Assembly: GCA_026004395.1 (NCBI GenBank)
Contig: BPJB01000001.1
Location: 649,226 to 713,225, forward strand
Source: Patescibacteria group bacterium
GTDB lineage: Bacteria; Patescibacteriota; Microgenomatia; Levybacterales; UBA12049
DNA: 64,000 nt
Reading direction: 5' to 3'
In this document: piece by piece, positions 2,138 to 44,556 of the stretch
Layout: each line of letters begins with the position of its first letter
How positions within the stretch are numbered: position 1 is the stretch's first letter
Position numbers and translations under genes: made by a program
The notes under the pieces: model-generated
Databases searched by the model: none
Seen by the model: only the letters and a program-made list of their open reading frames with translations
What the model was told of the DNA's origin: nothing

Positions 2138-2854
2138 ATGAAAATTTCTATTCTCACACTCTTCCCAGAGATGTTTTCTGGTCCATTTGATGCATCCATA
2201 ATTAAAAAAGCCCGTGAACGAAATTTAGTAGATATACGCCTTATTAATATTCGAGATTTTGGTATTGGTAAGCATCATCTAGTAGACGATACACCCTATG
2301 GTGGAGGAGTAGGAATGGTAATGCGTGTAGATGTTCTTCATAAAGCAATACAGAAAGCTAAAGACCCCCAAATTCCTGAAGAAAAAGAAAAAGTTATTTT
2401 ATTAACACCAGATGGAACTCTTTACACGCAAAGGGTGGCTGAATCTTTTGCTCAATTTAAACATCTTATTCTTGTTTGCGGACATTATGAGGGAATAGAT
2501 GAACGAATAAAAGCCTTTGTTGATTACGAGATTTCCATAGGTGATTTTATTTTAACGGGAGGAGAGATACCTGCAATGGCAATAACTGATTCTGTTGTAA
2601 GACTTATTCCAGGAGTATTTAAGACTGGTGTAACAGAAAGCGAATCATTTTCTCTTCGAGGTGAAGGTGGTAAAATACTCCTTGAGTATCCACTGTATAC
2701 CAAACCTGCAGAGTATCTTGGTATGAAAGTACCTGATATTCTTTTGGGAGGAGACCATGCAAAAATAAAAGAGTGGAGATACGAACAAGCTCTTAAAAAA
2801 ACAAGACAAAAACGACCAGATCTTCTTCAGAAAGGAGTTAATTCAGCTGATTGA
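2138..2854 (+). CDS. trmD: tRNA (guanine37-N1)-methyltransferase TrmD
   Basis: N-terminus MKISILTLFPEMF and SPOUT-fold motifs such as GGGVGMVM. Confidence 0.9.
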   Translation: MKISILTLFPEMFSGPFDASIIKKARERNLVDIRLINIRDFGIGKHHLVDDTPYGGGVGMVMRVDVLHKAIQKAKDPQIPEEKEKVILLTPDGTLYTQRVAESFAQFKHLILVCGHYEGIDERIKAFVDYEISIGDFILTGGEIPAMAITDSVVRLIPGVFKTGVTESESFSLRGEGGKILLEYPLYTKPAEYLGMKVPDILLGGDHAKIKEWRYEQALKKTRQKRPDLLQKGVNSAD

Positions 2855-3537
2855 GAACTTGCAGGTCTTATAGCTTGTCTCGATGCTCTCCATTCTTCAA
2901 GCGTCTTAAGAAGTAGGAGATGATTTCCGCTTATACTCTTTATTGGCTGGACATATGATAACTGAATCTGCTCTGGTGCAATTTTATAAAAATAAATAAG
3001 ACTTACAGAACTTCCTCCTTTGGTATAGCTCGCTTTGATTACTTCTGCCAACGGAACTTTCTCATAAATTTCCTTTAAAAACTCCTCAATTCTTGCCAAT
3101 TCACCAATAAGTGAAAGTTGTATAGAGATTGCCGTCTGAGGTGATAGCTGGGCTGATTTGGTAGAAAGATCTCCAACTTGAAAAGAGAAATCATTTAAAA
3201 CCACTCCTGATTTAAGAGTTGCCGTATTGATAGCCTCAAGAATTCCAACAAAATCTTTTTCATACGGTAGTGCTGACTTGACAATATCAAATTGTTTGGA
3301 AAGAACATTATCTGAAGTAGAAGTCAACAAGCTTTGATTAGACTTCAAAATTGCTATTCTTGATCTTGTAGCATTAACTTCAGATTGAAGAGAGAACCAA
3401 CTTTGAATTTGTGGAAATACAATGAAAATAATAAGCCCAGCACTTACTAAAAAAATTACACCAATCACTCCAAGAGAAAACCAAAGCGAATCTTTATATC
3501 GGTAATAATACATCAAAAGTTGAGCTGAATTTTTCAT
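2827..3537 (-). CDS. pilO: Type IV pilus assembly protein PilO-like
   Basis: Single N-terminal transmembrane helix and a periplasmic coiled region. Sits downstream of pilM and pilN in an operon. Confidence 0.55.
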   Translation of the reverse strand: MKNSAQLLMYYYRYKDSLWFSLGVIGVIFLVSAGLIIFIVFPQIQSWFSLQSEVNATRSRIAILKSNQSLLTSTSDNVLSKQFDIVKSALPYEKDFVGILEAINTATLKSGVVLNDFSFQVGDLSTKSAQLSPQTAISIQLSLIGELARIEEFLKEIYEKVPLAEVIKASYTKGGSSVSLIYFYKIAPEQIQLSYVQPIKSISGNHLLLLKTLEEWRASRQAIRPASSQSAELTPF

Positions 3538-3549
3538 AACTGCTATCCT

Positions 3550-4083
3550 TCAGAGAAATTCAACTATAAATTCTGCTTGATAAAAATTTTTGCTAGTACC
3601 AAATGAATTCATAAATATACGTGCAACTCTTTTGTCTTCTTTTCCTATTCTGTTTAAGCTTTCAATATAAGCGCCTATGCTTGCTAAGTCTTTTGTTTCT
3701 ATAGTTATCTTCAGTGTTTTTTGTTCAACCTCCAGCAATGTAATTTCTAAATCTTGGGGTATATCTTTAGTGAAGGTAATTATAAAATCTCTAAATTTTG
3801 GCCTTTTGGTTACAATCTGAGATATATCATCAAGTCTATTTACAATAAGAGTTTGTTTGGTAATTTTTTCATGTTGTCGGGAAAGTGAATCCAAAAGTGC
3901 ATTTTCTTCATTTTTAAGACGAGGAAGAGGAGAGGCTAGGATTAACAAAAACACAGAAACTGACAAAACTCCAGCAAATAACAATAAAGCTATCGCAATG
4001 AACCTTAGAAGTTTTATTTTGCGAGTGAGTGCTCCAAGTGTACCTCTCCGTTTGCTATAAAGAAAATTGATATCGTTAGTCAT
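3550..4083 (-). CDS. pilN: Type IV pilus assembly protein PilN-like
   Basis: Short cytoplasmic N-terminus with an INFLY (INLLP-like) PilM-binding motif, then one transmembrane helix. Immediately follows pilM. Confidence 0.6.
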   Translation of the reverse strand: MTNDINFLYSKRRGTLGALTRKIKLLRFIAIALLLFAGVLSVSVFLLILASPLPRLKNEENALLDSLSRQHEKITKQTLIVNRLDDISQIVTKRPKFRDFIITFTKDIPQDLEITLLEVEQKTLKITIETKDLASIGAYIESLNRIGKEDKRVARIFMNSFGTSKNFYQAEFIVEFL

Positions 4084-5104
4084 TTTCTCTTAAAGCAAGA
4101 CCGACTGCGACTGTAAATCGCGGCCCTTGTTCCATCAAAATATCAGGAACTCCACTTATCGAACGTACCTTGAAGGGATTACCAATAACAGTCTCTATAC
4201 CACAATTTTTGGCAAAATACAGAGCAAGTCCAGGAAGAAGAGATGAACCACCGCTAATAATAATTTGAGATATTGGACTATCATTTTTGTATTTCTCCGT
4301 ATAATATGCAAGAGCTTTTTTAACTTCTGTAAGCATTGCCTCCAGAATAGGGGAGAGAGCAAGGCTGATTTTTCCTCCCAAGTTTTGATCATTCAGACCA
4401 TATGTTTTTTTATATTCTTCTGCTTGAGTAAGAGCAAATCCAAAATTAGAAGCAATTGCACGATCCATAGCAAGACCACCAAGCGGAATAGTATAGGTAA
4501 AAACAAGAGTATTATTCTGGATGATAGCCAAAGATGTACTCAGTGCTCCAATATTTACAATAAGTAATGCCTTATCTGATTCCTCAGGAACTAAGGAACG
4601 TATAACAGAAATAATTTCTGTTTCGATAGCATTTATTGAAAGTCCTGTCATCTCAATAATTGTTTGATAACGCCTAACAAGATTTGTAGGAGCCCCTACC
4701 AGAAGCACTTGCATTTTAGGACTTATCTCTGACATGGATCCACGCCTTAATACCTTATAGTCAAGTGTCAATGTTGATAACTGTGCTGGAATATGTTGTT
4801 CTGCCTCCCAATATATTGCTGATGATAGCTCTTTATCTGAAAGAACAGGCATATCAATTACTTTGGTAAAGACTTGATTCTCAGGTAAAGCAAGATTGAC
4901 ATTGCGTACAGTGATCTTAGAATCAACAACCAGCTGCTGTATTGCCTGCGCCATTGCCTCCTGATCAATTGCGGACTCTGAAAGCATACCTTTTGCAGGA
5001 GTAACAGTTGTCAGACATGCCTTTAGAGATGTCACTCCCTTATTCTTATCCAACCACACAATTTTCATTGATGTTGCTCCGATATCAAGTCCAAAAGTTT
5101 TCAT
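4076..5104 (-). CDS. pilM: Type IV pilus assembly ATPase-fold protein PilM
   Basis: Actin-like fold with N-terminus GLDIGATSMKIV and C-terminal IIISGGSSLLPGL. Confidence 0.85.
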   Translation of the reverse strand: MKTFGLDIGATSMKIVWLDKNKGVTSLKACLTTVTPAKGMLSESAIDQEAMAQAIQQLVVDSKITVRNVNLALPENQVFTKVIDMPVLSDKELSSAIYWEAEQHIPAQLSTLTLDYKVLRRGSMSEISPKMQVLLVGAPTNLVRRYQTIIEMTGLSINAIETEIISVIRSLVPEESDKALLIVNIGALSTSLAIIQNNTLVFTYTIPLGGLAMDRAIASNFGFALTQAEEYKKTYGLNDQNLGGKISLALSPILEAMLTEVKKALAYYTEKYKNDSPISQIIISGGSSLLPGLALYFAKNCGIETVIGNPFKVRSISGVPDILMEQGPRFTVAVGLALREND

Positions 5105-5107
5105 AAA

Positions 5108-5929
5108 TTAGGGTGAAAAAATACCATGTGGGAAAATCTCAACAGGAAGCGTAGGATACCCTTTATAGACTGTCAGCTTCCTTTCTGTATTAGACGCAAC
5201 CCCAGTTGACTCAATAATCTGTCCTTGAGCTGGAAGAGGTTGAGTGCTGCTTATCCCAAGCCGTGTGGGAGCATAAAGAGGAACTATTCTCATAAGCAAA
5301 CCATTAGTGACCGAAATAGTGTATGAATGAGTAAACTGTTTACCACCAATTATTCCTCCTGATTGAATATTCTGAGAAAAATTATTAACTGACGCTCGTG
5401 CTGAACACGGCTCAAGCATATAGTGTGTCATGGTCAAATTTTGAGGGGAGTTAATATTCCCTGAAATAACAACTATTTGTAGTGCAGACTCTGTATTGGT
5501 AGATTCATTATTTGTACATGTATCAGAAGGTGATCCCCAATAAACAGTAACTTGTGCATTCAACGGAGAAGTGTATGTGGGATAATTAGCTAGCCAAACA
5601 TCAGCACCATCGTCTTTGGGAATAAGATTATAATTATAAACAAGAAATGAACTGCTATTTTTTGCATAGGATGTTATCTTGGCATTAAAAGAAGCATTCG
5701 TTCCCACTTCATCGCTTAATGTTAAAGATTCAGCGCTTGAGTTAATTAGCCTCTCAATACCAGCCTCAGCTGCTGAAAAGGCTTTCTGTGAATTTTCCTC
5801 CTCTTCTGTTGTTCGAAGATTTACAATACTGCGGCTGACAACTGAAAGACCGATAGTTAAGGAAACTACCATTACTAAGATAATGATAAGTAGGATCTGT
5901 CCCTTCTGATAGGATGGTGAAAAATTCAT
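5108..5929 (-). CDS. PilX-N-domain minor pilin / pilus assembly protein
   Basis: N-terminus QKGQILLIIILVMVVSLTIGLSVVSRS matches the PilX_N hydrophobic segment. The C-terminal part is Ser/Thr/Asn-rich. Confidence 0.5.
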   Translation of the reverse strand: MNFSPSYQKGQILLIIILVMVVSLTIGLSVVSRSIVNLRTTEEEENSQKAFSAAEAGIERLINSSAESLTLSDEVGTNASFNAKITSYAKNSSSFLVYNYNLIPKDDGADVWLANYPTYTSPLNAQVTVYWGSPSDTCTNNESTNTESALQIVVISGNINSPQNLTMTHYMLEPCSARASVNNFSQNIQSGGIIGGKQFTHSYTISVTNGLLMRIVPLYAPTRLGISSTQPLPAQGQIIESTGVASNTERKLTVYKGYPTLPVEIFPHGIFSP

Positions 5930-5978
5930 ACTCTCAACTTATCGTAACAAGCACATTTGCTTGTGTCAACTGAAAAGA

Positions 5979-6614
5979 CTATTCTTTCAGGTTACGCATG
6001 ATTACTGTGGACTGGAAAGAAGAAGGTGTTGTCGCATCTACAACACCGCTACTATACTTTTTACTCAAGGTAAAAGAGATTGTAATTGTTGGAAAATTGT
6101 AAAGTGAATTTTGGGTACACGTAAAAGAACATGCTGTTACTACGACAGAAGAAGTATCAACAAGAGAAGCACTATTAGAGGAAATCGTACCATTGGGAAG
6201 ACTGTTACAAGAGAATGTAGTTCGTCCAGCGTCAGGATTCTCTATTATAATTGATGATGTTGTTGCTATATATCCAGTCTCGTTAAAACAAGGAGATGGA
6301 TACTCTAAAGAACGGGCATTACGTATCATTTTTGTTATTTGCGAAAGAGCATAGTTGCCATTTTGCTGGAGGATTGTGACATTTGTACTTTTATTTGAAC
6401 CGCGCAAAGATGCCAACAACACTCCAAAAACAATTCCGCTAACTGATGCTATAACAACAATTACAGCAAGAAGTTCAACAAGAGTAAAGCCTAAATTTTG
6501 CCAACGAAAAATTTTTAGTATCCAATCTTTTATAGTCAATTTCCACTGAAAATCCACTATCTTTACTTTTGAAATTTGAGATTTAAATTTTATACTTGGT
6601 AAATTTTTAATCAT
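5979..6614 (-). CDS. Type IV prepilin-like protein (minor pilin)
   Basis: Class III signal G|FTLVELLAVIVVIA with Glu at +5. The leader in the ORF track is long and the true start is unclear. Confidence 0.65.
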   Translation of the reverse strand: MIKNLPSIKFKSQISKVKIVDFQWKLTIKDWILKIFRWQNLGFTLVELLAVIVVIASVSGIVFGVLLASLRGSNKSTNVTILQQNGNYALSQITKMIRNARSLEYPSPCFNETGYIATTSSIIIENPDAGRTTFSCNSLPNGTISSNSASLVDTSSVVVTACSFTCTQNSLYNFPTITISFTLSKKYSSGVVDATTPSSFQSTVIMRNLKE

Positions 6615-7117
6615 GGTGATTTTTTGGTTGAGTAACTAGACAAGCATGTTTCAACAGTCGTTTTATGACAATAGAGATTATTCACATTTGTACAGGTATT
6701 ATCTCGCCAAGAAACAGTTACAGAAACCTTTGATTGTGTAAGAGTGGGATCATTAGTTGCTTCCTCACAAGAAGATGCATTATGTTGAAGCGTTACTTCA
6801 CGGATGTACCTGTTAGCTACGTTTAATCCACATTCAATACCTTTTGGTCCACAACTTCCTGAATCTGTTGAAAGAGAAGTACACGTATCAGCAAAACAAT
6901 ATGTGGTATTAGGTAAAGAAAAAAATGTACTATATTTATTTTCTTTCATAGTTCGAATGCTCTCTAAAGCATCCTGTGCGTATTGTGTTGCTTGCTGTTG
7001 AGAAGTACTATGAGTGGTATTTTTAAGTGCGGTAATCACTGCTAGTGTAATTGCTGAAAGAACAGCTATGCCTATTGCCAATGCAACTAAAACTTCAATT
7101 ATTGTTTCTCCCTTCAT
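6611..7117 (-). CDS. Type IV prepilin-like protein (PilV-like minor pilin)
   Basis: MKG|ETIIEVLVALAIGIAVL prepilin motif. The C-terminal domain is Cys-containing. Confidence 0.6.
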   Translation of the reverse strand: MKGETIIEVLVALAIGIAVLSAITLAVITALKNTTHSTSQQQATQYAQDALESIRTMKENKYSTFFSLPNTTYCFADTCTSLSTDSGSCGPKGIECGLNVANRYIREVTLQHNASSCEEATNDPTLTQSKVSVTVSWRDNTCTNVNNLYCHKTTVETCLSSYSTKKSP

Positions 7118-7119
7118 AA

Positions 7120-7698
7120 TTATTCAAGACTTATTGCTCCTTGTTGAGTAACAGTTACTCTTAGAGTATTACCATATCCAGTTATACCTATACTCCCAGC
7201 ACCATCTACTCCTCCAGATAAAACTTTAAAAATATATTGTGTTGATGTCGTAGTAGCTGAATCAAATGCTACGTTAGCAGGAAGTGTTTTTGTTGACAAC
7301 TTAGATGTAAGATTACCACAACGAACGTACAACTCATAAGTATTCTGAGTATTACATAGGGAGCCTGTCAATCCACAAATTCTTACCTCGTAGCCATCAA
7401 GGGTATTAGAGTTACATGCTGCAATAGATGGTTTGAGTTGCGATTGTGTACGCGACTTAGCATCCTGTAATAGAGAGATCACATCAAATGCCGCACTTTT
7501 TACAGTCTGAATTTTATTGTAAGAAACAAAAGCTGCCAAGGAAACTGTTGAGATGATGGCAATTATTACAAATACAACTAGCAACTCAAGAAGAGTAAAT
7601 CCATTTCTATTGTCAATATCGACAATTCTATAAATAAAATCAAATCGTTTCTTAATATTTTTTAATAAACTTTTATCAGTGGACAAATTTTTCTTCAT
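7120..7698 (-). CDS. Type IV prepilin-like protein (minor pilin)
   Basis: G|FTLLELLVVFVIIAII motif. Confidence 0.65.
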   Translation of the reverse strand: MKKNLSTDKSLLKNIKKRFDFIYRIVDIDNRNGFTLLELLVVFVIIAIISTVSLAAFVSYNKIQTVKSAAFDVISLLQDAKSRTQSQLKPSIAACNSNTLDGYEVRICGLTGSLCNTQNTYELYVRCGNLTSKLSTKTLPANVAFDSATTTSTQYIFKVLSGGVDGAGSIGITGYGNTLRVTVTQQGAISLE

Positions 7699-8225
7699 GG
7701 ATTATTGAGGACATAGTATTTTCCTGATATACATGATCCACTGGCTGCAGGACTTGGAGGTGTAGTAGTAGCATTTACATCATTATCATTTGCATTCTCA
7801 AGACATGCAGCAAGAGTATACGTTGAGCCATCGGAACTACTGTAATAATAGTAGTTGCCGCCATTATACGATCCAGAACCAGATCCCAATGGATCACATG
7901 GTACTTTACTCATATAAGTAACTCCATTATAAGAAAAACTCTCTGATGTAGGACATGCAGTAAGGTTTATCCTATAGGTATCCTGTCTGATAGGATAGCG
8001 ACCATTATCTGTATGAAAAAGTTGAACAGTGGCTTGCAATTGTCTAAGATCGGCTTTGCGTTGCGCATCTCGAGCTCGTTGTCTCACTCCTACAAAATTG
8101 GTCATCAAAAAAGTAGTCAGCACTCCAATTATTGCGATAACAATCAAAAGTTCGATAAGAGTAAATCCTCTTTTGCTTTTGAAGATGTAACTGATAGTTT
8201 TTATCTCTGAAAATATTTTTTTCAT
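7695..8225 (-). CDS. Type IV pilin
   Basis: KRG|FTLIELLIVIAIIGVL motif. The C-terminus is Ser/Gly/Tyr-rich and Thr/Pro-rich. Confidence 0.75.
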   Translation of the reverse strand: MKKIFSEIKTISYIFKSKRGFTLIELLIVIAIIGVLTTFLMTNFVGVRQRARDAQRKADLRQLQATVQLFHTDNGRYPIRQDTYRINLTACPTSESFSYNGVTYMSKVPCDPLGSGSGSYNGGNYYYYSSSDGSTYTLAACLENANDNDVNATTTPPSPAASGSCISGKYYVLNNP

Positions 8226-8782
8226 GGACTATAATCTGAGCTTGTTACACCATAATTACAGATAATATTCGGATCATTATTAACACTACAGGCAGTAGAT
8301 GGAATACCAAAACGTGCTGTCATATTAAGACACGGATTGCCTTGATTACACGCATCGGGATCTTTTCCCCCTCTCTCAAGACTAGCATAGAGAGCGTATG
8401 TCTGTCTATCTGGAGTTGAGTAATATACGTATCTTCTCTCACCTGTAGGATCAGCAGGAAGAATATTCATATAGGGCTGCCATGAAGATCCCCATTCTAT
8501 CGTGTTACCACCAATACGTATTTTTCTATCTGGTGATGACTCAGGATAACTGCCATAATCATGATAATAAGCTTCAAGGCTACGTTGAATTTGTGCAAGA
8601 TCTGATTTACGTCGCGCGTCATTCGCCTTAAGATATTGATTTCTAGGATCGGTAAGTGCAATTACCCCTGCGGCAAGAATACCAAAAATTGCTGCAACCA
8701 AAATAAGTTCTATAAGGGTAAATCCTTTCTTTTGTGATAAGAAAAATGAAGTAGTCATCTTTTTATAGCTTATAACTTTCAA
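8222..8782 (-). CDS. Type IV pilin
   Basis: KKG|FTLIELILVAAIFGILAAG motif. The probable start is the internal Met at 8758 (MTTSFFLSQKKG). The C-terminal domain contains Cys residues. Confidence 0.75.
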   Translation of the reverse strand: MKVISYKKMTTSFFLSQKKGFTLIELILVAAIFGILAAGVIALTDPRNQYLKANDARRKSDLAQIQRSLEAYYHDYGSYPESSPDRKIRIGGNTIEWGSSWQPYMNILPADPTGERRYVYYSTPDRQTYALYASLERGGKDPDACNQGNPCLNMTARFGIPSTACSVNNDPNIICNYGVTSSDYSP

Positions 8783-8797
8783 AAAAAAATTTCAAAA

Positions 8798-9295
8798 CTA
8801 CTTTGAACCATCAGAAAGCCTTATAGTTGAAAGATAAGAACAATCAATATTTCCTAAAGCAATACATGCCCACTGATTAGTAAAATCTAAAGGTTTACAG
8901 GATGGAAGAGTATTCAAAATACACGCTGATGCTGGCTGAGCTTTTGATAGTTTTGTAAACAAGATGCTCCATTGAGGACAGGATCCGTTTGTCTGGTATA
9001 TAAAACATTCTGTGGGATCAGAAGTACATGCAGAGCTCTGAGGCACTTTTATCATGTAAGTTGTTACTCCCTTTTTCCATTCAGATCCGAATGGTATAGT
9101 AGTAGGATAACAATTATTATCATTGTAATAAGTATCTAGTGCTGCTTTTATTTGCTGAAGACTATTTTTTTCTTCTTCATCACCAACCTTTGCCAAGTTT
9201 TTATATGGATTTAAAATAACAAATGTTAAAAGCAGCATGCTGCTTAAAATTACTATTGATACCAAAAGTTCAATAAGTGTCAAACCCTTCATCAT
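8798..9295 (-). CDS. Type IV pilin-like protein; paralog of the next gene
   Basis: MMKG|LTLIELLVSIVIL motif. The start is set at the internal Met pair at 9295 to avoid overlap with the upstream gene. Shares the YYNDxxCYPxTIPFGSEW block with the 9300-10073 protein. Confidence 0.65.
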   Translation of the reverse strand: MMKGLTLIELLVSIVILSSMLLLTFVILNPYKNLAKVGDEEEKNSLQQIKAALDTYYNDNNCYPTTIPFGSEWKKGVTTYMIKVPQSSACTSDPTECFIYQTNGSCPQWSILFTKLSKAQPASACILNTLPSCKPLDFTNQWACIALGNIDCSYLSTIRLSDGSK

Positions 9296-9299
9296 ATTT

Positions 9300-10073
9300 T
9301 TAACATGCACCATTACATGTAGGTGAACAATATGTGCCTGTACCTTGAGGGACAACATTACATCGCTGGATCGGATCACCGCGACATGCATAATTTCGCT
9401 GTTCAATCGGACAATCTTCAGGAGTCTTTTCAGGATTTACCTGTTGATTACCAGTTGGAGAAGGCGAAGAACCAGGAGGCACAGGAAGAGAAGAAAACAC
9501 CGGATTTGCAACAACAACAGAACAATCAATATTGCCTGATAAAGCACAAGACCATGAGGTGTCATAATTGGGAGGAATACAACTTGAGGAAAAAGACTTG
9601 AGAGGACATGAGACATTTTGTTCAAGATCATTTTTAACGTAGATAATATTCCACTGAGGGCAAGGATCGTTTTGATCTACCTGATAAAGATAGCAATTAG
9701 CAGGATTAGATTCACAGTCTGGAGCTTGAGGAACTTTGGACATATAAACTGTTGATCCCACACGCCATTCAGAACCAAAAGGTATAGTTTTTGGATAACA
9801 ACCAAAATCATTGTAATAGGCATCTAAAGAATTCTTAAGCTCGTTTAAATCATGGGCTCGCGTCGCATCTTTGGCTTTTTTAATCTGTGAAATTGGATCG
9901 ATCAAAATAACAACAAATACTAGTAAAATAGAAAGGATAGCAATCTCTATTATCATTTCCAGCAATGATAAACCTTTAACCGGGTATAAATATTGAGCAA
10001 AATTCTGATAGAAAGGATGTTTATCAACTGCAAAAAGTGGCACTCGTTCTGTTGTATTATCTTTCATGTTCAA
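9300..10073 (-). CDS. Type IV pilin-like protein with a Pro/Ser linker and a Cys-rich C-terminal module
   Basis: KG|LSLLEMIIEIAILSIL prepilin-like signal. A PVPPGSSPSPTG linker is followed by a 10-Cys C-terminal tail. Confidence 0.6.
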   Translation of the reverse strand: MNMKDNTTERVPLFAVDKHPFYQNFAQYLYPVKGLSLLEMIIEIAILSILLVFVVILIDPISQIKKAKDATRAHDLNELKNSLDAYYNDFGCYPKTIPFGSEWRVGSTVYMSKVPQAPDCESNPANCYLYQVDQNDPCPQWNIIYVKNDLEQNVSCPLKSFSSSCIPPNYDTSWSCALSGNIDCSVVVANPVFSSLPVPPGSSPSPTGNQQVNPEKTPEDCPIEQRNYACRGDPIQRCNVVPQGTGTYCSPTCNGAC

Positions 10074-10837
10074 AATAGGAAAAAATACTGCTTTGCAATT
10101 GACTCAAATATATTACCCCACAACATGACAAGTATTGTTCCAAAAACCAAAAATGGACCAAAAGGGATTGTATCTCCATGTAATTTCTTCTTTTTTAGTA
10201 AAACTAGTATGAGAGAAAGTATTGCACCTGTCAAGAAAGCAATATATAAACCTATGATAATTCCAGGAAAACCAAGAATAAATCCCATAACAAAAGAATA
10301 TAAAACATCTCCAAAACCCATACCTCTTCCTCTTGTCAAAAGGAAAACCGCCAAGAAAAATCCTCCTGCTGCAATTGCACTAACAACATGCGAAAAAAAT
10401 GAACTTTGATTGAGGATCAAAATCCCTATTCCTGAAATAAATGCCAAAAAAATACTTTGTACAGGAATAATGCCATAACGCCAATCTGTGACAAATATTA
10501 CAAAAAGTGATGCTAGCAAAAGAGTATAAAAAGATAATAAAAGGATAGAGGCATTTTTTAATGTTAAAAATATTATTGCAAAAATTATTCCCATTAATAC
10601 CTCGCTTACTGGATACCAAAATGACAGATTAGCATGACATGTTCTACATTTTCCTTGCAAAAAAATAAAAGAGAAAAGGGGGAAAAGCTCATACCACTTA
10701 AGAATACGCTGACAATTATCACAATGAGATCTTCCACTTATAAATGATTGATTTTTTGCAGATCTGTCTGCAACAACAAGAAAGAAACTTCCGAAAAATA
10801 ATCCTGCAAGAAAAGCAAATACCACTGACAGATCCAT
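10070..10837 (-). CDS. pilD: Prepilin leader peptidase / N-methyltransferase (A24 family)
   Basis: N-terminal CxxC...CxxC zinc motif (CDNCQRI...CRTC) and a multi-TM body containing GFGDVLY. Confidence 0.85.
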   Translation of the reverse strand: MDLSVVFAFLAGLFFGSFFLVVADRSAKNQSFISGRSHCDNCQRILKWYELFPLFSFIFLQGKCRTCHANLSFWYPVSEVLMGIIFAIIFLTLKNASILLLSFYTLLLASLFVIFVTDWRYGIIPVQSIFLAFISGIGILILNQSSFFSHVVSAIAAGGFFLAVFLLTRGRGMGFGDVLYSFVMGFILGFPGIIIGLYIAFLTGAILSLILVLLKKKKLHGDTIPFGPFLVFGTILVMLWGNIFESIAKQYFFLF

Positions 10838-10915
10838 AATAAAAGCATAACACAGACGATACTCATCATGTAAAGAGCTGTGTTATAATCTACTTCATTA
10901 CCATATAATTTATTT

Positions 10916-11956
10916 ATGGCTCTACCAAAAGTTGCAATTGTTGTACTTAATTACAATGGTTGGCGTGAAACAGTCCATTGTCTTAAGACTCTTCTATTGA
11001 CTGATTATCCTCAGTTCACAATTCATGTTCTTGATAATGGTTCACAACGTAATGAGCTTACTATATTAAAACGTCGTTTTAACGATCCAAGAATTGTTTT
11101 TCATCGTATTATAAAAAATATTGGTTATTCGGGAGGCAATAACTATCTTTTCAATAAAATTAATGAGAAATATATAGCACTTGTAAATAATGATGTAGAG
11201 GTACCAAGTAATTGGCTCAAACCACTTGTTAATGTACTTGAGAAAGATAAAACAATTGCAATCGTACAGCCAAAGATACTTTGGTTTAAGAATAAACGTT
11301 ATTTTGATTATTCAGGTGCTTGTGGGGGTTATATAGATATTTTTGGATATCCTTTTACTCGTGGACGAATTTTCAATACTATAGAAGAAGATAGGGGACA
11401 GTATGATAAGGAAGTAGATCTTTTTTGGGCGAGTGGTGCAACAATGCTTATGAGAATGAGTGCGCTACGAAAAGTTGGAGGATTTGATGAAAGATTCTTT
11501 AATTATATGGAAGAGATAGATCTTTGTTTTAGACTTCATCGAGCAGGATATAGGGTAGTCTTCACACCCAAATCCTATGTTTATCATAAAGTAGCAGCAA
11601 CTCTTTCACGAAAGCCTATGAAAAAACGTTTTTGGGAACACCGAAACAACATACTTATGATTATAAAAAATTATCCTTTAGGAAAACTCCTTTTGATTCT
11701 CCCTATAAGAATTTTATTGGAGTATCTTAGCTTTATATATTATCTAGGATCACAACAATTTGATTATGCACTGGCAGTTATCTACAGCCAAATTTCTCTT
11801 TTATACATGGGGCCGCTTTTTTTCATTCAAAGACTAAGTAAATCTGTTAAAGAAACCTCAAAAATGAAAAAAATTATCTACTCAAAGAGCATTGTAATCG
11901 ATTATTATTTATTTAAAAAACGCAACTATCATTCTCTTGAATGGAGAGAAAACTAA
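10916..11956 (+). CDS. Glycosyltransferase family 2
   Basis: VAIVVLNYNG...LDNGS...DxD-type GT-A motifs. Confidence 0.8.
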   Translation: MALPKVAIVVLNYNGWRETVHCLKTLLLTDYPQFTIHVLDNGSQRNELTILKRRFNDPRIVFHRIIKNIGYSGGNNYLFNKINEKYIALVNNDVEVPSNWLKPLVNVLEKDKTIAIVQPKILWFKNKRYFDYSGACGGYIDIFGYPFTRGRIFNTIEEDRGQYDKEVDLFWASGATMLMRMSALRKVGGFDERFFNYMEEIDLCFRLHRAGYRVVFTPKSYVYHKVAATLSRKPMKKRFWEHRNNILMIIKNYPLGKLLLILPIRILLEYLSFIYYLGSQQFDYALAVIYSQISLLYMGPLFFIQRLSKSVKETSKMKKIIYSKSIVIDYYLFKKRNYHSLEWREN

Positions 11957-15776: not shown

Positions 15777-16331
15777 TTATAATACAGCGCACCAGTAGCA
15801 GTCAGCAGAGCCTCCTTTTGATTTGCACGTTGCTGATGTGGGAGTACCGTCAATACCGTAAATTGTATTGGCATCTCTCTGTTGTGCTTTTGATTGAGGT
15901 TTGTAGCAGGCTGTTACAGTATTTGTTGATCCTGTGAAATAAATCTCTTTGATAATATTTGTTGCTGTATTATAACCAGTTTTAAGCTCTCCATCACTTA
16001 TCAAAGCCTGAACACATGTAGTTCCACCATCAACAGAAGAGTTCAAATTAACCGAAACTGCATTATAATCATTACCTGAGCAACCCAAATAACCTCCCTC
16101 ATTAGTACTAGCCCATGGCATACCATTATGTGTAGTAAAGTAGCGAAGATTTGCATTGATAAACTCAACTGTACTATTTTTTACATTTGAATCTTGGGCT
16201 TTTTTCAGTTGCTCAAAAGGATCAATTGTGGCAATGAGAGCTGATGCAAGAATACCTAAAATTCCAATAACAACTAAAAGCTCTATAAGTGTGAATCCTT
16301 TTGAAAGTGATTGAATTCGGGCAGTTATCAT
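15777..16331 (-). CDS. pilA: Type IV pilin (major pilin candidate)
   Basis: Short leader MITARIQSLSKG|FTLIELLVVIGILGILA. It has its own AT-rich upstream region. Confidence 0.8.
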   Translation of the reverse strand: MITARIQSLSKGFTLIELLVVIGILGILASALIATIDPFEQLKKAQDSNVKNSTVEFINANLRYFTTHNGMPWASTNEGGYLGCSGNDYNAVSVNLNSSVDGGTTCVQALISDGELKTGYNTATNIIKEIYFTGSTNTVTACYKPQSKAQQRDANTIYGIDGTPTSATCKSKGGSADCYWCAVL

Positions 16332-16516: not shown

Positions 16517-17914
16517 TTAATTCTTGCTTATAGGCAGAGAAAAAGTAACAGATGTCCCTCTACCGATACCATCTGAGTGTATCCAGATTTCTCCTCCATG
16601 CATCTGAACAATCGATTTACAGATATAAAGCCCCAGTCCTGTTCCTTGTGTTGCTGATTTGTTGACTGTATAAGAACCATGTAGAAAACCGAATTTTTGA
16701 AATAACCTTGGCATTTCCTCCTGTGGAATACCTGATCCAGTGTCCGAAATTACCGTATCAACTCTTTGATCTTTTGGAGAGTAGGAGAGAGTTATTGTAA
16801 TTTTTCCACCAACAGGTGTAAATTTAATTGCATTATCTAGCAGATTATTAAGTACCTCCTTTATTTTCTCAGGATCAGCAACCACATTGGGAATTTCTTG
16901 AGGAAAATTACAAGAAAGAATAAGACCTGCTTGTTCGATGCGCGGTTTCAGCTCATCAACCACTTCTGAGATGAGATTGGGAAGAGCTGTTGACTGAAGT
17001 GCGAGAGAGATTCTACCTGACTCAATCCGAGAAATATTGAGCATATCGCCAACAAGTTTTATCAGTCTATCAACTGATGTGTAAGCTCTATTCAAATAAT
17101 ACACCTGCTTCTCAGTCAAAGGACCGCCTCTGCCAGCAAGCGCCATCCACAAATACGACTTAATCGCTGTCATGGGTGTACGCAACTCATGTGAGGCTAA
17201 AGATACAAACTCGTCTTTTAATACATCTAACTCCTGAAGCTTCTGATTACTTTTTTGTAACTCTTGATAAAGAAGTGCATGATCCATCACAATTCCTACA
17301 ACACCAACCAGACGACCAATTAAATCCATTTGATACTCTGTAAGTTCTTTTTCTGTTGCCTGATGACCAACTACAATTGCTCCCAGAGTTTCCTCTCGAA
17401 CCCTCAAAGGAAAAATCAGATAGGTTTTTATTTGACTAAGCTGCTGAAGTTTATTTGCCTCCTCATCAGATAAATCATGAAGTGTCACCTCTTTTAGATT
17501 GTTGGTTGCTTTGTACCTGCCTTCGGTTACTACCTGCACAATTGCATTTTCTTTTTTAGCAAGAGAAATGGCTTCACCCGGTTGAGCATAATTTTTAAGT
17601 CTCTCTCTGCTTGCCTCAATATTGGAACTCTCTGCTATACCAAATCTCACAAGCATCTTTTTTTGTTTATCAATAACTAAAATACTCGCAAAAAGAAAAT
17701 CAGCTTCTGTAACTAAAATTCTGGCAACTTGTGTTGCGATCTCAATTGGATCATTGACAGAGCTAAAAATAATATCGTCTATTCTTCTAAAAAGAGTAAG
17801 TGTCTTATTGCGTTCTGCCAGCTCTATATTTTTTCTGAGCATTTCCTGATTAATATGTTCAAGATCTTTTGTTATATCGCTTTGTTGAGATTGAATTTGT
17901 GTAACATCTGACAT
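16517..17914 (-). CDS. Sensor histidine kinase (GAF-HisKA-HATPase), cytoplasmic
   Basis: H-box SHELRTPMTAIKSY and G-boxes GTGLGLYICKSIVQMHGG. No TM segment. Confidence 0.85.
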   Translation of the reverse strand: MSDVTQIQSQQSDITKDLEHINQEMLRKNIELAERNKTLTLFRRIDDIIFSSVNDPIEIATQVARILVTEADFLFASILVIDKQKKMLVRFGIAESSNIEASRERLKNYAQPGEAISLAKKENAIVQVVTEGRYKATNNLKEVTLHDLSDEEANKLQQLSQIKTYLIFPLRVREETLGAIVVGHQATEKELTEYQMDLIGRLVGVVGIVMDHALLYQELQKSNQKLQELDVLKDEFVSLASHELRTPMTAIKSYLWMALAGRGGPLTEKQVYYLNRAYTSVDRLIKLVGDMLNISRIESGRISLALQSTALPNLISEVVDELKPRIEQAGLILSCNFPQEIPNVVADPEKIKEVLNNLLDNAIKFTPVGGKITITLSYSPKDQRVDTVISDTGSGIPQEEMPRLFQKFGFLHGSYTVNKSATQGTGLGLYICKSIVQMHGGEIWIHSDGIGRGTSVTFSLPISKN

Positions 17915-17920
17915 ATTTCT

Positions 17921-40091: not shown

Positions 40092-40140
40092 ATGATATCT
40101 TTTAGATAGATCTAGTAAAAAAATTTTATATGATCTTTTG

Positions 40141-40398: not shown

Positions 40399-41598
40399 TT
40401 ATTGGATTTGCGAAATGAGGTTATAAATAGGAGTAATGATGGAGATAATCAAAAAACCTACTCCTATAGCAAGAAGTACCATTATAAAAGGTTCCATAGC
40501 AGTTGTTAGTGTCTTAATTGTTTGTTCCACCTCGCGTTCAAAATACTCTGAAACTCTCAGCAATGACTCATCAAGTTTACCTGTCTGCTCACCAATCTTA
40601 ACCATCTCAACAACAATTGGAGGAAAAAGAGGGTCCGTAAGCATGGCATCTCCTATTGTAACTCCTTTCTCAACCTTTCTTCCAACCTCAAGGATTGCCT
40701 TACGATAATGGTAATTACCAACAACATCAGAACTCTGATTGAGAGATTCAACAACCAGAGATCCTGTTCCCACCAAAAGACCAAATGTTCTAGTGAACTC
40801 AACCATAGCAGATTGAGCAATCAGCTTACCAAAGATAGGCACTTTTAATAAAAATCCATCAATAAGCATCTTGCCAGTTGGGGTTTTGCCCCAGCGACGC
40901 AAATAATACATGCTAATAACACTACCACCTACTATAAATGGCCAAAATTTGATGGTGAAATTAGATAATCCAACAACCACTCTTGTTGCTAGCGGTAACT
41001 CAATATTAAGATTTTCATACAGAACGCTTAGTTGAGGTATCACAAAAATCATCATTACTGCTATCACTGCAATCATCATAATAATCACAATAATTGGATA
41101 AAGAAGTGCCGATTTAATCATACTTTTTAATTTTTGTTGTTTCTCAAGATTATCTGCTAGGCGCAGGAGTACCTTATCGAGAAGACCGGCTGACTCAGCA
41201 GCTTTTACAAGAGACACATAGATAGGAGAGAAGACTTTGGGATACTTAGCAATTGAATCTGAAAATGATTTACCTTCCTGAATTGTAGATATGATCCCTT
41301 GAACAACTTCCTGCATAGCGGGATTTTGTATTTGATTGCGCAAAATATCAAGAGATTGCATCAGAGTGAGGCCTGAGGTGAGCATGGAAGAAAGCTGTCT
41401 CGTAAAAAAAACAATTTCAGACTTGGCAGACTTTCGTCTCAAACTTAGTAAAAATCCTTTTGATGTCTGTTCTTTAATATGTATAGGAATAAAATTCTGA
41501 CTTCGAAGATACGCTGCAGCATCAGGAATATCCTTAGCTTCAATAATCCCATGAACAATTTTCCCCTGTTGATTAACTGCACGATAGAGAAGCTTCAT
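40399..41598 (-). CDS. pilC: Type IV pilus platform protein PilC (GspF family)
   Basis: Two GspF repeats and 3 TM segments. Confidence 0.85.
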   Translation of the reverse strand: MKLLYRAVNQQGKIVHGIIEAKDIPDAAAYLRSQNFIPIHIKEQTSKGFLLSLRRKSAKSEIVFFTRQLSSMLTSGLTLMQSLDILRNQIQNPAMQEVVQGIISTIQEGKSFSDSIAKYPKVFSPIYVSLVKAAESAGLLDKVLLRLADNLEKQQKLKSMIKSALLYPIIVIIMMIAVIAVMMIFVIPQLSVLYENLNIELPLATRVVVGLSNFTIKFWPFIVGGSVISMYYLRRWGKTPTGKMLIDGFLLKVPIFGKLIAQSAMVEFTRTFGLLVGTGSLVVESLNQSSDVVGNYHYRKAILEVGRKVEKGVTIGDAMLTDPLFPPIVVEMVKIGEQTGKLDESLLRVSEYFEREVEQTIKTLTTAMEPFIMVLLAIGVGFLIISIITPIYNLISQIQ

Positions 41599-41609
41599 AC
41601 TGCATTAAA

Positions 41610-42698
41610 TTATCCGAGCAATCGAGTAAGCTCTTCGGGATGATTGGCAAAACTGCGTGCAGTCTCAAGAGTGACTTGTCCTTCGCGAACAAGTTGTGCA
41701 AGAGATTCTTCAATAGTTATCATGCCAAGATCTTTTGAAGTTTGGATAATTGAATCTATAAGATGCGTCTTTCCATCTCTGATGTTGCTTGCCACTGCTG
41801 GTGTACCTACTAAAATTTCAACAGCAGGTATTCGTCCTCCAGTAATTTTAGGAAGAAGCCGTTGCGAGATTATACCTTTCAAAGAGGCGGCTAGTTGAAT
41901 TCTAATTTGAGATCGTTGATGATCAGGAAAAGCATCAACAATTCGATCAATACTTTGCGCTGCAGAATTAGTATGCAAGGTAGCAAAAACTAGATGTCCT
42001 GTCTCAGCAATAGTAAGAGCAGCGCTAATGGTCTCTGGATCGCGCATTTCCCCAATAAGGACGACATCCGGATCCTCACGTAAAGCGGAGCGAAGAGCCA
42101 TAGCCCAAGAATGTGTATCTGTTCCCATCTCTCTTTGAGAAATAATACTATTCCCCTGAGGATACACATACTCAATTGGATCCTCAATAGTAATGATATG
42201 ACTGGATTTATTGAGATTTATCTCATTGATCATTGCTGCCAGTGTACTTGATTTTCCATGACCTGTCGGACCTGTTACCAAGACAAATCCTTGACGCAAA
42301 TCAGCAAATGAGTGACAAACTCTAGGAAGTTGCAATTGCTCAATGGTGCGAATACTAGGAGGTAAGAAACGAAAAGCTGCTGCTAAATATCCTCTTTGAA
42401 AGTAAGCATTGATTCTAAAACGTCCCAAATCTCCATAGGGACCATCACCAAAACCAAAAGAAAAGTCAAGTTCTTTATTTGCAAGTAATAACTCTTTTTG
42501 CTCTGGAGTCATAAGAGAATAGACAAGAGATTCAAGTGTTTCTCGAGAAAGAGCATCAAAATGAGTTAAATATCTTAGCGAACCATCTACTCTAATAACT
42601 GGTGGAATACCCACTAGTAAATGTAGATCTGAGGCATTGTTCTTGATTGTAAGTTGTAAAAGCTCTTGTATTGATGGTCCCATATTATTCCTGTGCAA
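41610..42698 (-). CDS. pilT: Twitching-motility retraction ATPase PilT
   Basis: Walker A GPTGHGKSST, the Asp box, Walker B and His box, plus a PilT-type AIRNLIRE-like C-terminus. Confidence 0.85.
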   Translation of the reverse strand: MHRNNMGPSIQELLQLTIKNNASDLHLLVGIPPVIRVDGSLRYLTHFDALSRETLESLVYSLMTPEQKELLLANKELDFSFGFGDGPYGDLGRFRINAYFQRGYLAAAFRFLPPSIRTIEQLQLPRVCHSFADLRQGFVLVTGPTGHGKSSTLAAMINEINLNKSSHIITIEDPIEYVYPQGNSIISQREMGTDTHSWAMALRSALREDPDVVLIGEMRDPETISAALTIAETGHLVFATLHTNSAAQSIDRIVDAFPDHQRSQIRIQLAASLKGIISQRLLPKITGGRIPAVEILVGTPAVASNIRDGKTHLIDSIIQTSKDLGMITIEESLAQLVREGQVTLETARSFANHPEELTRLLG

Positions 42699-44556
42699 CT
42701 CTCAATACTTCCTCAATCGTTGTTATGCCTTGCAAAGCTTTAAGATATCCATCTTGCATCATAGTAATCATACCTTCTGCAACAGCCTGTTTTTCAACAG
42801 TTGCACTATCTGGATGTTGTAAAATAAGTTGGGCAATTTTTTCTGTAACTGGAAGCACCTCGTAAATACCAATTCTACCTTGATATCCTGAACCTCCGCA
42901 TTCGCTACAACCTTTACCTCTGTAGAGTCTTACTTCTTCATCTTTATATTTATATAGATTACCTAGTACAGATTTTATTTGTGCAAGAATTTGCGGTGTG
43001 GGAACATAGGATTCTTTACAATATTTACAGATACGCCTTGTAATACGCTGACCCACAATAGCATTCATTGTTGATGCAAGAAGAAAAGGCTCAGCACCAA
43101 GATCAATAAGACGCGGCAGCGCTCCTGCTGCACTGGAAGTATGAATTGTTGAAAAAACTAAATGGCCAGTAAGAGAAGCTTGGAGAGCAAGATCTGTAGT
43201 CTCTTTGTCTCTAATTTCCCCAACAAGAATAATATTAGGATCTTGGCGGAGGAAGGCTCTAAGACCTGAGGCAAATGTAAGTCCTACTGCAGGATTGACC
43301 TGCACCTGATTTACTCCAGGAATTTGATACTCAACAGGATCTTCCAAAGACATAATGTTCACCTTTGGAGTATTCAATTTCGATAAAATTGCATAAAGAG
43401 TCGTCGTTTTTCCGCTACCTGTTGGACCACATACGAGAATAATTCCATGTGGTCTTGCAATCGCATTTTCTAAATTCTTTAATGCTGTTCCTCCAAGTCC
43501 CAGATCGGGAAGAGTTGGAATACCACCTGATTTTCTCAAAAGACGCATAACAATTTTCTCTCCATTAACTGTAGGGAGGATGGAGACACGCAGATCTACC
43601 TCTTGATCTCCTGTCTTAAAGTTGAATCGTCCATCCTGCGGCGTCCTATGTTCATCAATTTTAAGATCAGAGAGAATCTTAATTCTAGAGATCAGTGCTT
43701 CTTGGACGTTTTTGGGAAGACTAAGCTTATCATAAAGAATACCATCAATACGATACCTAACTCGCACTCTATCTTCTTGAGGTTCAATATGAACGTCAGA
43801 GGAACGACTAGTAACAGCGTATTCTAATATCGTAGATACTATTTTGGCAATTGGAGCTTCTTTGATAATCTGAGAAATTTGTGTACTGTCTACTGTCTTT
43901 TTTTTACTAAATTCCTCTGACTCTTTTATAGCTGCTCCAACTTCTCCTACTAATTCTTGTCTATACTCCTGATTAATAGCAGCTTGTACTTCTGAGGGAG
44001 CAGCAGCAAATGTTTTAATATTAAGTCCTGTTTTCTTTTTGACAAACTCTATTGCCTCAAGATCAACAGGATTAGCCATTGCTACGTATAGAACCTGAGC
44101 TTTTTCATCATAGAAAAAGGGGATAAGTGAAAAACGCTCCACAACAGCTCGAGGCAAAAAACCTATTGCCTGAGGAGCAAAAGAGGTAGAAGTTAGAGAA
44201 ATATAAGGAACCCCTAAGAGCTTAGCCTTTGCTTCAGCTAGCTTTGCCTCAGGAACAATCCCCATCTCCTCGATGACTTTCTCAACTGGTTTACCCTCCA
44301 GAGCACTTTTTACTTTTATATCACTCGCTTGCTTAAAAGAAAGCGCATTTTCTGCAAGAAGAATATCAAGAAGAGATGAAGAGCTATCATCATTTACAGA
44401 AGAAGACGCAGAGGCAGAGGGTGATGATACATTCTGAGGCGTTGCAACAGAAGACGTCTGCTGAGTGGAAGGTGCAGTTTGTACATTCTGAAGATTAGTT
44501 TGAGTTGATGAATTATTGATCTGGACAGAATCAGACATTATTACCATAGTAGTCAA
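42685..44556 (-). CDS. pilB: Type IV pilus assembly ATPase PilB (GspE family) with an N-terminal Ser/Thr/Gln-rich extension
   Basis: Walker A GPTGSGKTTT and a tetracysteine CxxC...CxxC. The first roughly 60 aa are low-complexity. Confidence 0.85.
   Translation of the reverse strand: MTTMVIMSDSVQINNSSTQTNLQNVQTAPSTQQTSSVATPQNVSSPSASASSSVNDDSSSSLLDILLAENALSFKQASDIKVKSALEGKPVEKVIEEMGIVPEAKLAEAKAKLLGVPYISLTSTSFAPQAIGFLPRAVVERFSLIPFFYDEKAQVLYVAMANPVDLEAIEFVKKKTGLNIKTFAAAPSEVQAAINQEYRQELVGEVGAAIKESEEFSKKKTVDSTQISQIIKEAPIAKIVSTILEYAVTSRSSDVHIEPQEDRVRVRYRIDGILYDKLSLPKNVQEALISRIKILSDLKIDEHRTPQDGRFNFKTGDQEVDLRVSILPTVNGEKIVMRLLRKSGGIPTLPDLGLGGTALKNLENAIARPHGIILVCGPTGSGKTTTLYAILSKLNTPKVNIMSLEDPVEYQIPGVNQVQVNPAVGLTFASGLRAFLRQDPNIILVGEIRDKETTDLALQASLTGHLVFSTIHTSSAAGALPRLIDLGAEPFLLASTMNAIVGQRITRRICKYCKESYVPTPQILAQIKSVLGNLYKYKDEEVRLYRGKGCSECGGSGYQGRIGIYEVLPVTEKIAQLILQHPDSATVEKQAVAEGMITMMQDGYLKALQGITTIEEVLRVAQE

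Follow-up and report, generated by a model that had tools for sequence, protein, structure and literature searches.

The stretch of DNA analyzed here, referred to below as the window, comprises 64,000 nucleotides of contig BPJB01000001.1 (assembly GCA_026004395.1) from a Patescibacteria group bacterium. Its feature of interest is a cluster of eight type IV pilin genes, and above all the first of them, which encodes a pilin with a small cysteine-rich module at its C terminus. The eight consecutive open reading frames (ORFs) lie at 5108-10073 on the minus strand and are called P1 to P8, from upstream to downstream. Each encodes a leader ending in glycine and a hydrophobic helix of about 20 residues, according to the ORF listing and a motif script. 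A sequence-only reading of this DNA had proposed eight consecutive pilin or pseudopilin genes, and the leaders, the helices, and the PilD and PilMNO genes on the two flanks bear this out. A six-frame scan of the 64 kb for the class III signal G-[FLMIVAEYW]-[TSA]-[LIMV]-[ILVPM]-E followed by a hydrophobic run found exactly eight sites, seven of them inside the cluster and one in a separate pilin gene at 15777-16331; since the sites are confined to these two places, the clustering is far beyond chance. The window is AT-rich, with a GC content of about 31-39%.

The pilin genes belong to a co-oriented array of twelve minus-strand genes, PilD, P1 to P8, PilM, PilN, and PilO, separated in that order by 2, 4, 39, -4, -4, 2, -4, 49, 3, -8, and 12 nt; gaps of -8 to +49 nt amount to operon-like packing. 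The prepilin peptidase/N-methylase PilD, the first gene of the array (10070..10837, minus strand; Pfam A24_N_bact 95.2 bits, Peptidase_A24 46.1 bits), is directly upstream of the pilins, its stop codon lying 2 nt before the P1 start or overlapping it. Directly downstream, the same array encodes the PilM/N/O alignment subcomplex (2827..5104, minus strand), with PilM at 4076-5104 (TIGR01175, 191.7 bits), a PilN-like protein at 3550-4083 that is recognized by position and a single transmembrane segment only, and a PilO-like protein at 2827-3537 with a weak match to Pfam PilO (18 bits). Motor and platform genes are found together elsewhere in the window (40399..44556, minus strand): PilB at 42685-44556 (T2SSE 426 bits, plus MshEN), PilT at 41610-42698 (T2SSE 151 bits), and PilC at 40399-41598 (T2SSF 202 bits). 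The gene order major pilin ... PilD-P1-(P2)-P3-P4-P5-P6-P7-P8-PilMNO is kept in about 40 Levybacteria/Microgenomates loci, and all eight pilins are under purifying selection, the ratio of nonsynonymous (dN) to synonymous (dS) substitution rates being 0.07-0.19 against an ortholog array of 79-91% identity. Because of this strong selection on the minus-strand frames, short plus-strand ORFs within the cluster, such as 9323-9601 and 9993-10409, are probably spurious antisense frames. Homologs of P1 with an informative record come from Candidatus Levybacteria/Levyibacteriota, and the more distant ones from Shapiro-, Roizman-, and Gottesmanbacteria (Microgenomates). Records labeled "uncultured Gammaproteobacteria" are taken to carry generic deposit labels, because those loci share the Levybacteria gene order. 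We regard the region as the pilin section of a type IV pilus operon of the monoderm kind in a Levybacteria-like Patescibacterium, in other respects an ordinary candidate phyla radiation (CPR) operon.

P1 (9300..10067, minus strand, with an alternative TTG start at 10073) is a bimodular pilin, 100% identical to KatS3mg089_0652. A 32-amino acid leader (MKDN...PVKG) precedes the mature N terminus G|LSLLE, which has glutamate at both +5 and +9. The N-terminal half of P1 is GspG-like (TIGR01710 at 1.4e-6). The pilin domain (9504-9971) is followed by a fast-evolving, Pro/Ser/Thr-rich flexible linker (9414..9503) and then by a six-cysteine mini-domain that forms the C-terminal 37 amino acids (9303..9413), CPIEQRNYACRGDPIQRCNVVPQGTGTYCSPTCNGAC. 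The sequence-only reading had described a ten-cysteine tail; the 37-amino acid string that it quoted contains six. Mature P1 has 14 cysteines: its pilin domain accounts for eight, the number also present in that of P2, and its tail for six. Relative to the 84%-identical ortholog L001 (homologs are identified by L or P0 numbers), the tail has a dN of 0 and a dS of 0.46, compared with a dN of 0.23 for the linker and 0.54 for the leader, and the P1 ortholog is encoded identically on three independent contigs. Across 27 homologs the six cysteines and one N, one V, and two G residues of the tail are invariant, in the pattern C-x(5-8)-C-x(4-14)-C-N-x-V-...-G-x-G-x-(Y/F/H)-C-x3-C-x3-C followed by 0-3 residues, with the fourth cysteine after x10-13; the spacing in the window is 8-7-10-3-3. 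The linker of the homologs is P/T-rich and varies from about 5 to about 70 amino acids. An RGD sequence in the tail was considered as an integrin-type signal and rejected, the homologs reading, for instance, TGG, SGT, or TGE at that point.

An AlphaFold2 model of full-length P1 is a pilin lollipop with a predicted local distance difference test score (pLDDT) of 80-92 and an α1 helix at residues 37-90; the linker (196-216) is disordered with a pLDDT below 50, and the tail is moderately confident. Modeled alone from 27 sequences, the tail reaches a pLDDT of 87.2 and a predicted template modeling score of 0.60, as a β-hairpin with short turns. Foldseek with the tail-only model gave nothing meaningful (E >= 6.6), and scanning nine tails against Pfam at E <= 10, together with a PDB profile search, gave no family and only chance matches to coronavirus spike proteins. 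The distribution of the module was determined by an exhaustive hidden Markov model search of 1.84 billion (1.84e9) representative proteins at E <= 1e-3, which returned 31 hits. About 20 were single-stretch hits; every one of these falls on a P1-type pilin domain and has the module as the extreme C terminus. The multi-stretch hits P0023 and P0039 are unrelated cysteine-containing repeats, and the remaining multi-stretch hits are taken to be of the same kind. The tail is a genuine, selectively maintained cysteine-rich module of the disulfide type, and by these sequence searches it appears to be undescribed and lineage-restricted.

Extracellular disulfide formation would fit the cysteine content of the whole set. 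The nine mature pilins of the window have 14, 8, 4, 4, 4, 8, 4, 2, and 6 cysteines, all even numbers, with a likelihood of about 1 in 500 by simple parity. An MdbA-like oxidoreductase together with VKOR, for which a role in pilin folding has been proposed, is reported to be enriched in CPR genomes (bioRxiv 10.1101/335083). Thermostability was rejected as a specific reason for the many disulfides, the homologs coming from groundwater, aquifer, and sediment metagenome-assembled genomes.

The P1 architecture is one of several built on the same scaffold. In L019 the pilin domain and a P/T linker are followed by a Laminin_G_3/ConA-like lectin domain (74.8 bits) and then a variant cysteine tail. P0030 and L017 have a DUF1554/endostatin-like domain (30.7 and 36 bits) before a canonical tail, P0029 a region of BNR-like repeats (BNR_2, weak) before the tail, and P0037 an extra cysteine-rich stretch before the tail. 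L012, L015, L016, L028, L036, and L044 carry Ig-like or CBM48-like β-sandwich modules and no tail. The stop-to-stop frame of L036 (8680-9894) also contains a GIY-YIG nuclease domain (59 bits) upstream of the P1-type pilin; a neighboring gene taken in by the stop-to-stop translation is a more probable source than a real fusion. P1 itself consists of a pilin module and a structurally separate module joined by a linker, as indicated by the full-length and tail-only models and by the variable linker. One feature of modular pilins, an added module of defined function that is also known outside type IV pilus proteins, is absent for the P1 tail, which among 1.84 billion proteins was found on this pilin family only, and present for its Laminin_G_3 and DUF1554 relatives. 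P1 is a modular pilin that carries an undescribed six-cysteine module.

P2 (8798..9295, minus strand; G|LTLIE; start ATG 9295, with alternatives at 9292 or 9313) is a tail-less paralog of P1. The sequence-only reading had noted an internal block common to the two proteins, which both carry YYNDxxCYP...PQW, and their paralogy is clear: they are 42% identical over 156 amino acids (E = 6e-48), and all eight pilin-domain cysteines align. The same reading had supposed a recent duplication, which does not hold. With 42% identity, dS between P1 and P2 is saturated at 1.70, and the dN/dS ratio of the pair, proposed as a check, is uninformative; it was replaced by dN/dS between orthologs and by a bootstrapped neighbor-joining tree of pilin domains. 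In the tree, P1 of the window groups with copy 1 of L001 and L006 (173/200 bootstraps) and P2 with copy 2 (160/200), so that P1 and P2 fall into separate clades, each of which also contains the matching copy of a relative with 46% identity. The topology of a recent duplication, with the two copies of the window or of L001 as mutual closest relatives, was obtained in 0/200. The duplication is ancient. Most related genomes have one P1/P2-type gene, and tandem pairs are found in L001, L006, L007, L035, and the P0004 contig. The cysteine tail is present in members of the P2 clade (L006 copy 2, L013, L020, L023, and L030), and P2 ends (...RLSDGSK*) at the point where L006 copy 2 runs on (...QLSAGSTEC...) into its tail. 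Since P2-clade relatives bear the tail, the tail-less P2 is most simply explained by secondary loss of linker and knob.

The next two genes encode GspG/major-like pilins. P3 (8222..8758, minus strand, alternative TTG 8782) has the signal G|FTLIE and exceeds the cut-offs of N_methyl (31.6 bits) and T2SSG (30.3 bits). P4 (7695..8225, minus strand) matches N_methyl (34.9 bits), T2SSG (29.1 bits), and TIGR01710 (61 bits), and 4 nt are shared between its ATG and the stop of P3. The separate pilin (15777..16331, minus strand; G|FTLIE, 12-amino acid leader) is the most conserved pilin, with 95% identity and a dN/dS of 0.05 relative to L001, and in relatives its ortholog is directly upstream of PilD. 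All-against-all BLASTP relates P1, P2, P3, P4, and the 15777-16331 pilin to one another (for example P1-P3 1e-18, P3-P4 7e-22), and the best family matches of all five are GspG-type. The similarities suggest that P1 to P4 are paralogs of the major-type pilin at 15777-16331, which is the probable major subunit. Between PilD and the core minor pilins, the number of GspG/major-like paralogs is 2-6 across Microgenomates, with 4-6 tandem P3/P4-like genes in more distant Microgenomates (loci L045-L085, Shapirobacteria and others); this variation indicates expansion and contraction of this operon section through tandem duplication.

The P1 clade has a further peculiarity, a conserved acidic residue at mature position +9 within the hydrophobic α1N. 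It is aspartate in the clade but glutamate in the window (9945-9947), and it was seen in P1 of the window and in P0002-P0009, P0017, P0018, P0026, L007, and L025. Four P1 orthologs, including the closest (84%) one on three independent contigs, have glutamine instead of glutamate at +5. All other family members have V, A, S, or T at +9 and glutamate at +5. This pattern may mean that P1-clade pilins occupy a special position on assembly or form an alternative salt bridge; the combination of the +9 acid with Gln5 in the four orthologs is an oddity of the clade.

P5 to P8 look like the widely conserved core minor pilin quartet in the GspH-I-J-K order, judged by family resemblance and gene order. 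P5 (7120..7698, minus strand) is FimU/GspH-like: it has an N_methyl match of 32.5 bits, a leader of at least 29 amino acids, and an ATG that overlaps the P4 stop; its best NCBIfam match is GspH (2e-7), and a profile of 21 orthologs matches the FimU globular domain 4ipu (E = 0.015). P6 (6611..7117, minus strand), with a 3-amino acid leader (MKG|ETIIEVLVAL), is PilV/GspI-like and aligns over its full length with TIGR02523 PilV, at 36.9 bits against a cut-off of 52.2; 18/22 of its orthologs match PilV and 10/22 match GspI. P7 (5979..6614, minus strand; G|FTLVE; leader 17-42 amino acids; TIGR02532 20.3 bits) occupies the PilW/GspJ position. P8 (5108..5929, minus strand), the largest subunit at 273 amino acids, is PilX/GspK-like. 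Its N terminus, G|QILLI, lacks Glu+5, and the protein carries a PilX_N-type AFSAAEAG helix; the window protein reaches 15.4 bits on PilX_N against a cut-off of 25.5, and 14/22 of its orthologs match the model (best 5.4e-7). Position +5 is I, V, or A in 22/22 P8 orthologs and never glutamate, so that P8 displays the K-type feature of a missing Glu5. Profile searches of PDB with the P6, P7, and P8 orthologs gave no significant globular-domain match (ComZ at E = 0.95 for P8). All of the P5-P8 window proteins fall below the curated family cut-offs, and therefore we claim resemblance and not membership.

The signal sequences and start codons required some correction. Glutamate at +5 had been ascribed to all eight pilins; comparison of the N termini confirms it for P1 to P7, which share the signal G|(F/L/E)(T/S)(L/I)(I/L/V)E, but P8 has isoleucine there, leaving Glu+5 in 7/8. 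The N-methylation model PF07963 is matched above cut-off by P3, P4, and P5, and TIGR02532 by P2, P3, P4, P5, and P7. P1 is under the cut-off of both (PF07963/TIGR02532 14.0 and 12.6 bits), and P6 and P8 have no match to either. With the peptidase encoded directly upstream, the pilins are predicted to be processed by PilD at the predicted glycine. The long leaders of the ORF listing had been put down to mis-called or non-ATG starts, and mis-calling applies to P2 and P3 only; P1, P5, and P7 have no in-frame start that gives a short leader. The listed 41-amino acid leader of P2 (from TTG 9406) becomes a realistic 3-10 amino acids with ATG 9295 or 9292 (3-4 amino acids) or 9313 (10 amino acids), and the 202-amino acid P2 ORF starting at 9406 was rejected as an artefact that crosses the P1 tail in another frame. 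The P3 leader, listed at 20 amino acids, is probably 12 from ATG 8758. For P1, no in-frame ATG, GTG, or TTG gives a leader below 24 amino acids (32 with the NCBI ATG), for P5 none gives fewer than 29, and for P7 the minimum is 17. Ortholog leaders are typically about 6-16 amino acids, which puts P5 and P7 of the window at the long end, and these two cannot simply be mis-annotations. The ATGs of P4, P5, and P7 each overlap the stop of the preceding gene by 4 nt, a pattern typical of translational coupling. A promoter and terminator scan of 2500-11200 gave counts equal to shuffled expectation and was uninformative. A σ70-like site (TTGACA-17-TACGAT with an upstream TG) lies in the 49-nt gap between P7 and P8 (5941-5969, minus strand), 12 nt before the P8 start; because promoter-like sites are no commoner here than in shuffled sequence, it may be due to chance. 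Rfam and tRNA scans found no match in the pilin region.

Other genes near the pilus genes deserve mention. Directly downstream of the 15777-16331 pilin, 13757-15766 (minus strand) encodes a 669-amino acid GT-C membrane glycosyltransferase with a TPR-like C terminus that matches TMEM260-like protein O-mannosyltransferase (94 bits) and, weakly, PMT_2. Its pairing with this probable major pilin is kept in L001 and L004/L005 and suggests that the enzyme O-glycosylates the pilin or the Pro/Ser/Thr-rich linkers that modular pilins carry. Two paralogous GAF-HisKA-HATPase sensor kinases (16517-19402, minus strand) adjoin the probable major pilin and are reported as downstream of it, a neighborhood seen also in the L001, P0004, and L004 contigs; by analogy with PilS/PilR, they may provide pilin-linked two-component regulation. 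Downstream of PilB-PilT-PilC, past a tRNA-Thr gene (40140-40213), 39381-40091 (minus strand) encodes a 236-amino acid protein that has a transmembrane segment at its N terminus and also two Ig-like domains (Glucodextran_B 77.6 bits, Big_7); it may be a surface protein associated with the pilus or the envelope.

On balance, we consider it moderately probable that the locus is an operon in which P5 to P8 are the core minor pilins and P1 is a modular pilin with an adhesive knob. P5 to P8 would act as the FimU/GspH, PilV/GspI, PilW/GspJ, and PilX/GspK equivalents, priming assembly and ending at the tip, with P8, which lacks Glu5, as the putative top subunit. P1 to P4 would enter the pilus in small numbers or make up alternative filaments. 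The P1 pilin domain has four predicted disulfides, and the six-cysteine mini-domain presumably holds three. The pilus would then present the P1 module as a knob on a tether that binds a ligand, most probably a glycan or protein on the host cell surface. That relatives mount ConA-like lectin, DUF1554, and BNR-like modules in this way supports the idea of an adhesion scaffold. The cysteine-rich module had been read as a disulfide-knotted tip or adhesin module: the module is real and adhesion is plausible, but its placement at the tip is unsupported, and a 37-amino acid knob on a linker of about 30 amino acids would also fit along the shaft.

Several observations weigh against this reading. The tail stays terminal even in proteins that have a lectin-type module as well, which could mean a docking element or structural cap instead of an adhesin. 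It has no recognizable relative in Pfam, PDB, or Foldseek and hence offers no pointer to a ligand or to disulfide connectivity. Foldseek of the full P1 model against PDB returned pilins as top matches (Clostridioides difficile PilA1/PilW, Thermus PilA4), the best with a nonsignificant E of 0.24. No disulfide oxidoreductase was identified within the window. For the quartet, the P6 and P8 window proteins are under the curated cut-offs, and P7 has no specific globular-domain match and owes its PilW/GspJ label to position only. The status of the 15777-16331 pilin as major, and of the others as minor, is judged from conservation and position only.

The strongest competing explanation, which we still consider unlikely, is that the six-cysteine module is a C-terminal cap or docking element that binds a pilus component or secreted partner, or that stabilizes or terminates an inserted cargo module. 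The binding of CofJ by CofB is a precedent for a secreted partner of a pilin. The module is always at the extreme C terminus and is kept beside Laminin_G_3, DUF1554, and BNR-like modules that are themselves plausible adhesins, and a tail dN of 0 against 0.23 for the linker is far more constraint than would be expected of a determinant of host specificity. It is because the knob stays terminal even beside a lectin module and is far more constrained than the linker that docking stays alive as an explanation. However, many members, including P1 of the window, bear the six-cysteine tail as their sole extra module, others swap it for Ig-like modules or variant cysteine tails, the P2 lineage lost the tail yet kept the gene, and no partner gene is evident in the operon. 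A more speculative synthesis, which we rate as doubtful, is that the 37-amino acid unit represents a new family of extracellular domains confined to this lineage, one that a cargo-swapping Levybacteria pilin scaffold must have at its C terminus as its "business end" or docking cap, and that the P1 clade perhaps follows an unusual assembly rule in which the +9 acid is present and Glu5 is dispensable. If true, P1-clade pilins would hold a specialized position in the filament, for example as a tip-complex partner.

It is quite unlikely, in our estimation, that P1 to P4 are alternative major pilins of distinct filaments, the knob decorating the whole shaft. The two pili of TM7x and PilA4/PilA5 of Thermus are precedents for alternative pili. 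P1 to P4 share their GspG/major-like domains with the 15777-16331 pilin, Microgenomates clusters contain 2-6 such paralogs, and the shaft has steric room for a small knob at the end of a long flexible linker (an argument from PMC8179133). Yet the 15777-16331 pilin, at its own locus, is the most conserved (dN/dS 0.05), and the acid at +9 and the occasional Gln+5 of the P1 clade are atypical for a homopolymer-forming major pilin. A machine that is mainly a DNA-uptake (Com-like) or type II secretion system (T2SS)-like pseudopilus, with eight pseudopilins, is improbable. There are weak matches to ComGC/GD/GE/GF and GspG/H/I/J/K models, CPR bacteria depend on external nucleotides, and pili have been tied to competence in the CPR literature (bioRxiv 10.1101/335083). 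These Com/Gsp matches are, however, far under cut-offs and mostly reflect the shared N-terminal helix, whereas a PilT retraction ATPase and PilM/N/O are present, the lectin-type modules on the P1 scaffold point to surface binding, and the tested TM7x pilus T4P-2 made no contribution to competence (PMC11623550). Finally, an origin of the cysteine-rich tail as a frame or annotation artefact can be dismissed: an alternative ORF (8798-9406) does cross the same DNA in another frame, but the tail is in the true reading frame, with protein-level conservation among 27 homologs whose overall identity goes as low as about 35%, a dN of 0 with a dS of 0.46 in the P1 frame, an identical ortholog on three contigs, and a confident AlphaFold2 fold.

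Patescibacteria spend their lives attached to other microbes, with type IV pili as the best candidates for their attachment organs. To our knowledge, almost nothing is known outside the Saccharibacteria of which pilus subunit touches the host. The Levybacteria-wide pilin scaffold identified here, whose C terminus swaps lectin-like modules and an invariant disulfide-rich knob, supplies concrete candidates for host recognition, and the 37-amino acid module is small enough for synthesis and direct assay. The general picture of CPR pili is unchanged, and current understanding is not overturned.

Small disulfide-rich domains of other systems offer a first comparison. The tail presumably resembles inhibitor cystine knots, ShK-like domains, and fungal CBM1 domains in its length of about 35-40 amino acids, six cysteines, extracellular location, and β-hairpin, and its two conserved aromatic residues and asparagine may be reminiscent of mini carbohydrate-binding modules. 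Inhibitor cystine knots have a short gap between the third and fourth cysteines and a knotted I-IV, II-V, III-VI connectivity; the tail spacing of 8-7-10-3-3 (5-8/4-14/10-13/3/3 in the family) does not appear to fit this consensus. The quartet P5 to P8 resembles FimU-PilV-PilW-PilX of type IVa pili and GspH-I-J-K of T2SS in being four consecutive genes after major-like pilins, and P8 resembles GspK in the absence of Glu5. It differs in that the proteins are under the family cut-offs, P7 lacks specific similarity, and this cluster has no PilY1-like gene.

In the Saccharibacteria (TM7x), the accessory-domain minor pilins PilX1 and PilX2 contribute to host binding (PMC11623550). The pili of TM7x and of the window belong to the same superphylum and are of the monoderm type with PilB/T/C/D/M and no secretin seen; both have several minor pilins with pseudopilin-like homology, and C-terminal accessory domains are implicated in host binding. 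The phylum is different (here Levybacteria/Microgenomates), and in TM7x a β-jelly-roll and a β-propeller are carried on PilX-type pilins, whereas here the knob is on a GspG/major-like pilin, and the PilX-like P8 has its own unannotated 200-amino acid globular part. The closest parallel to P1 would be the modular pilins of Streptococcus sanguinis, where PilB bears a vWA module and PilC a ConA-like lectin module (Raynaud et al. 2021, PMC8179133; Shahin et al. 2023, PMC9934059). This modular strategy is widespread, CPR phyla are rich in such pilins, and they are under-detected when the module lacks a signature (PMC8179133). The P1 module differs in being only 37 amino acids long, on a long and disordered linker instead of a short loop, and adhesion by P1 is a prediction. 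P1 nevertheless has the same plan of a class III signal and a pilin module with an extra C-terminal module grafted on through a linker, and its relatives carry the Laminin_G_3/ConA-like type of module found in PilC.

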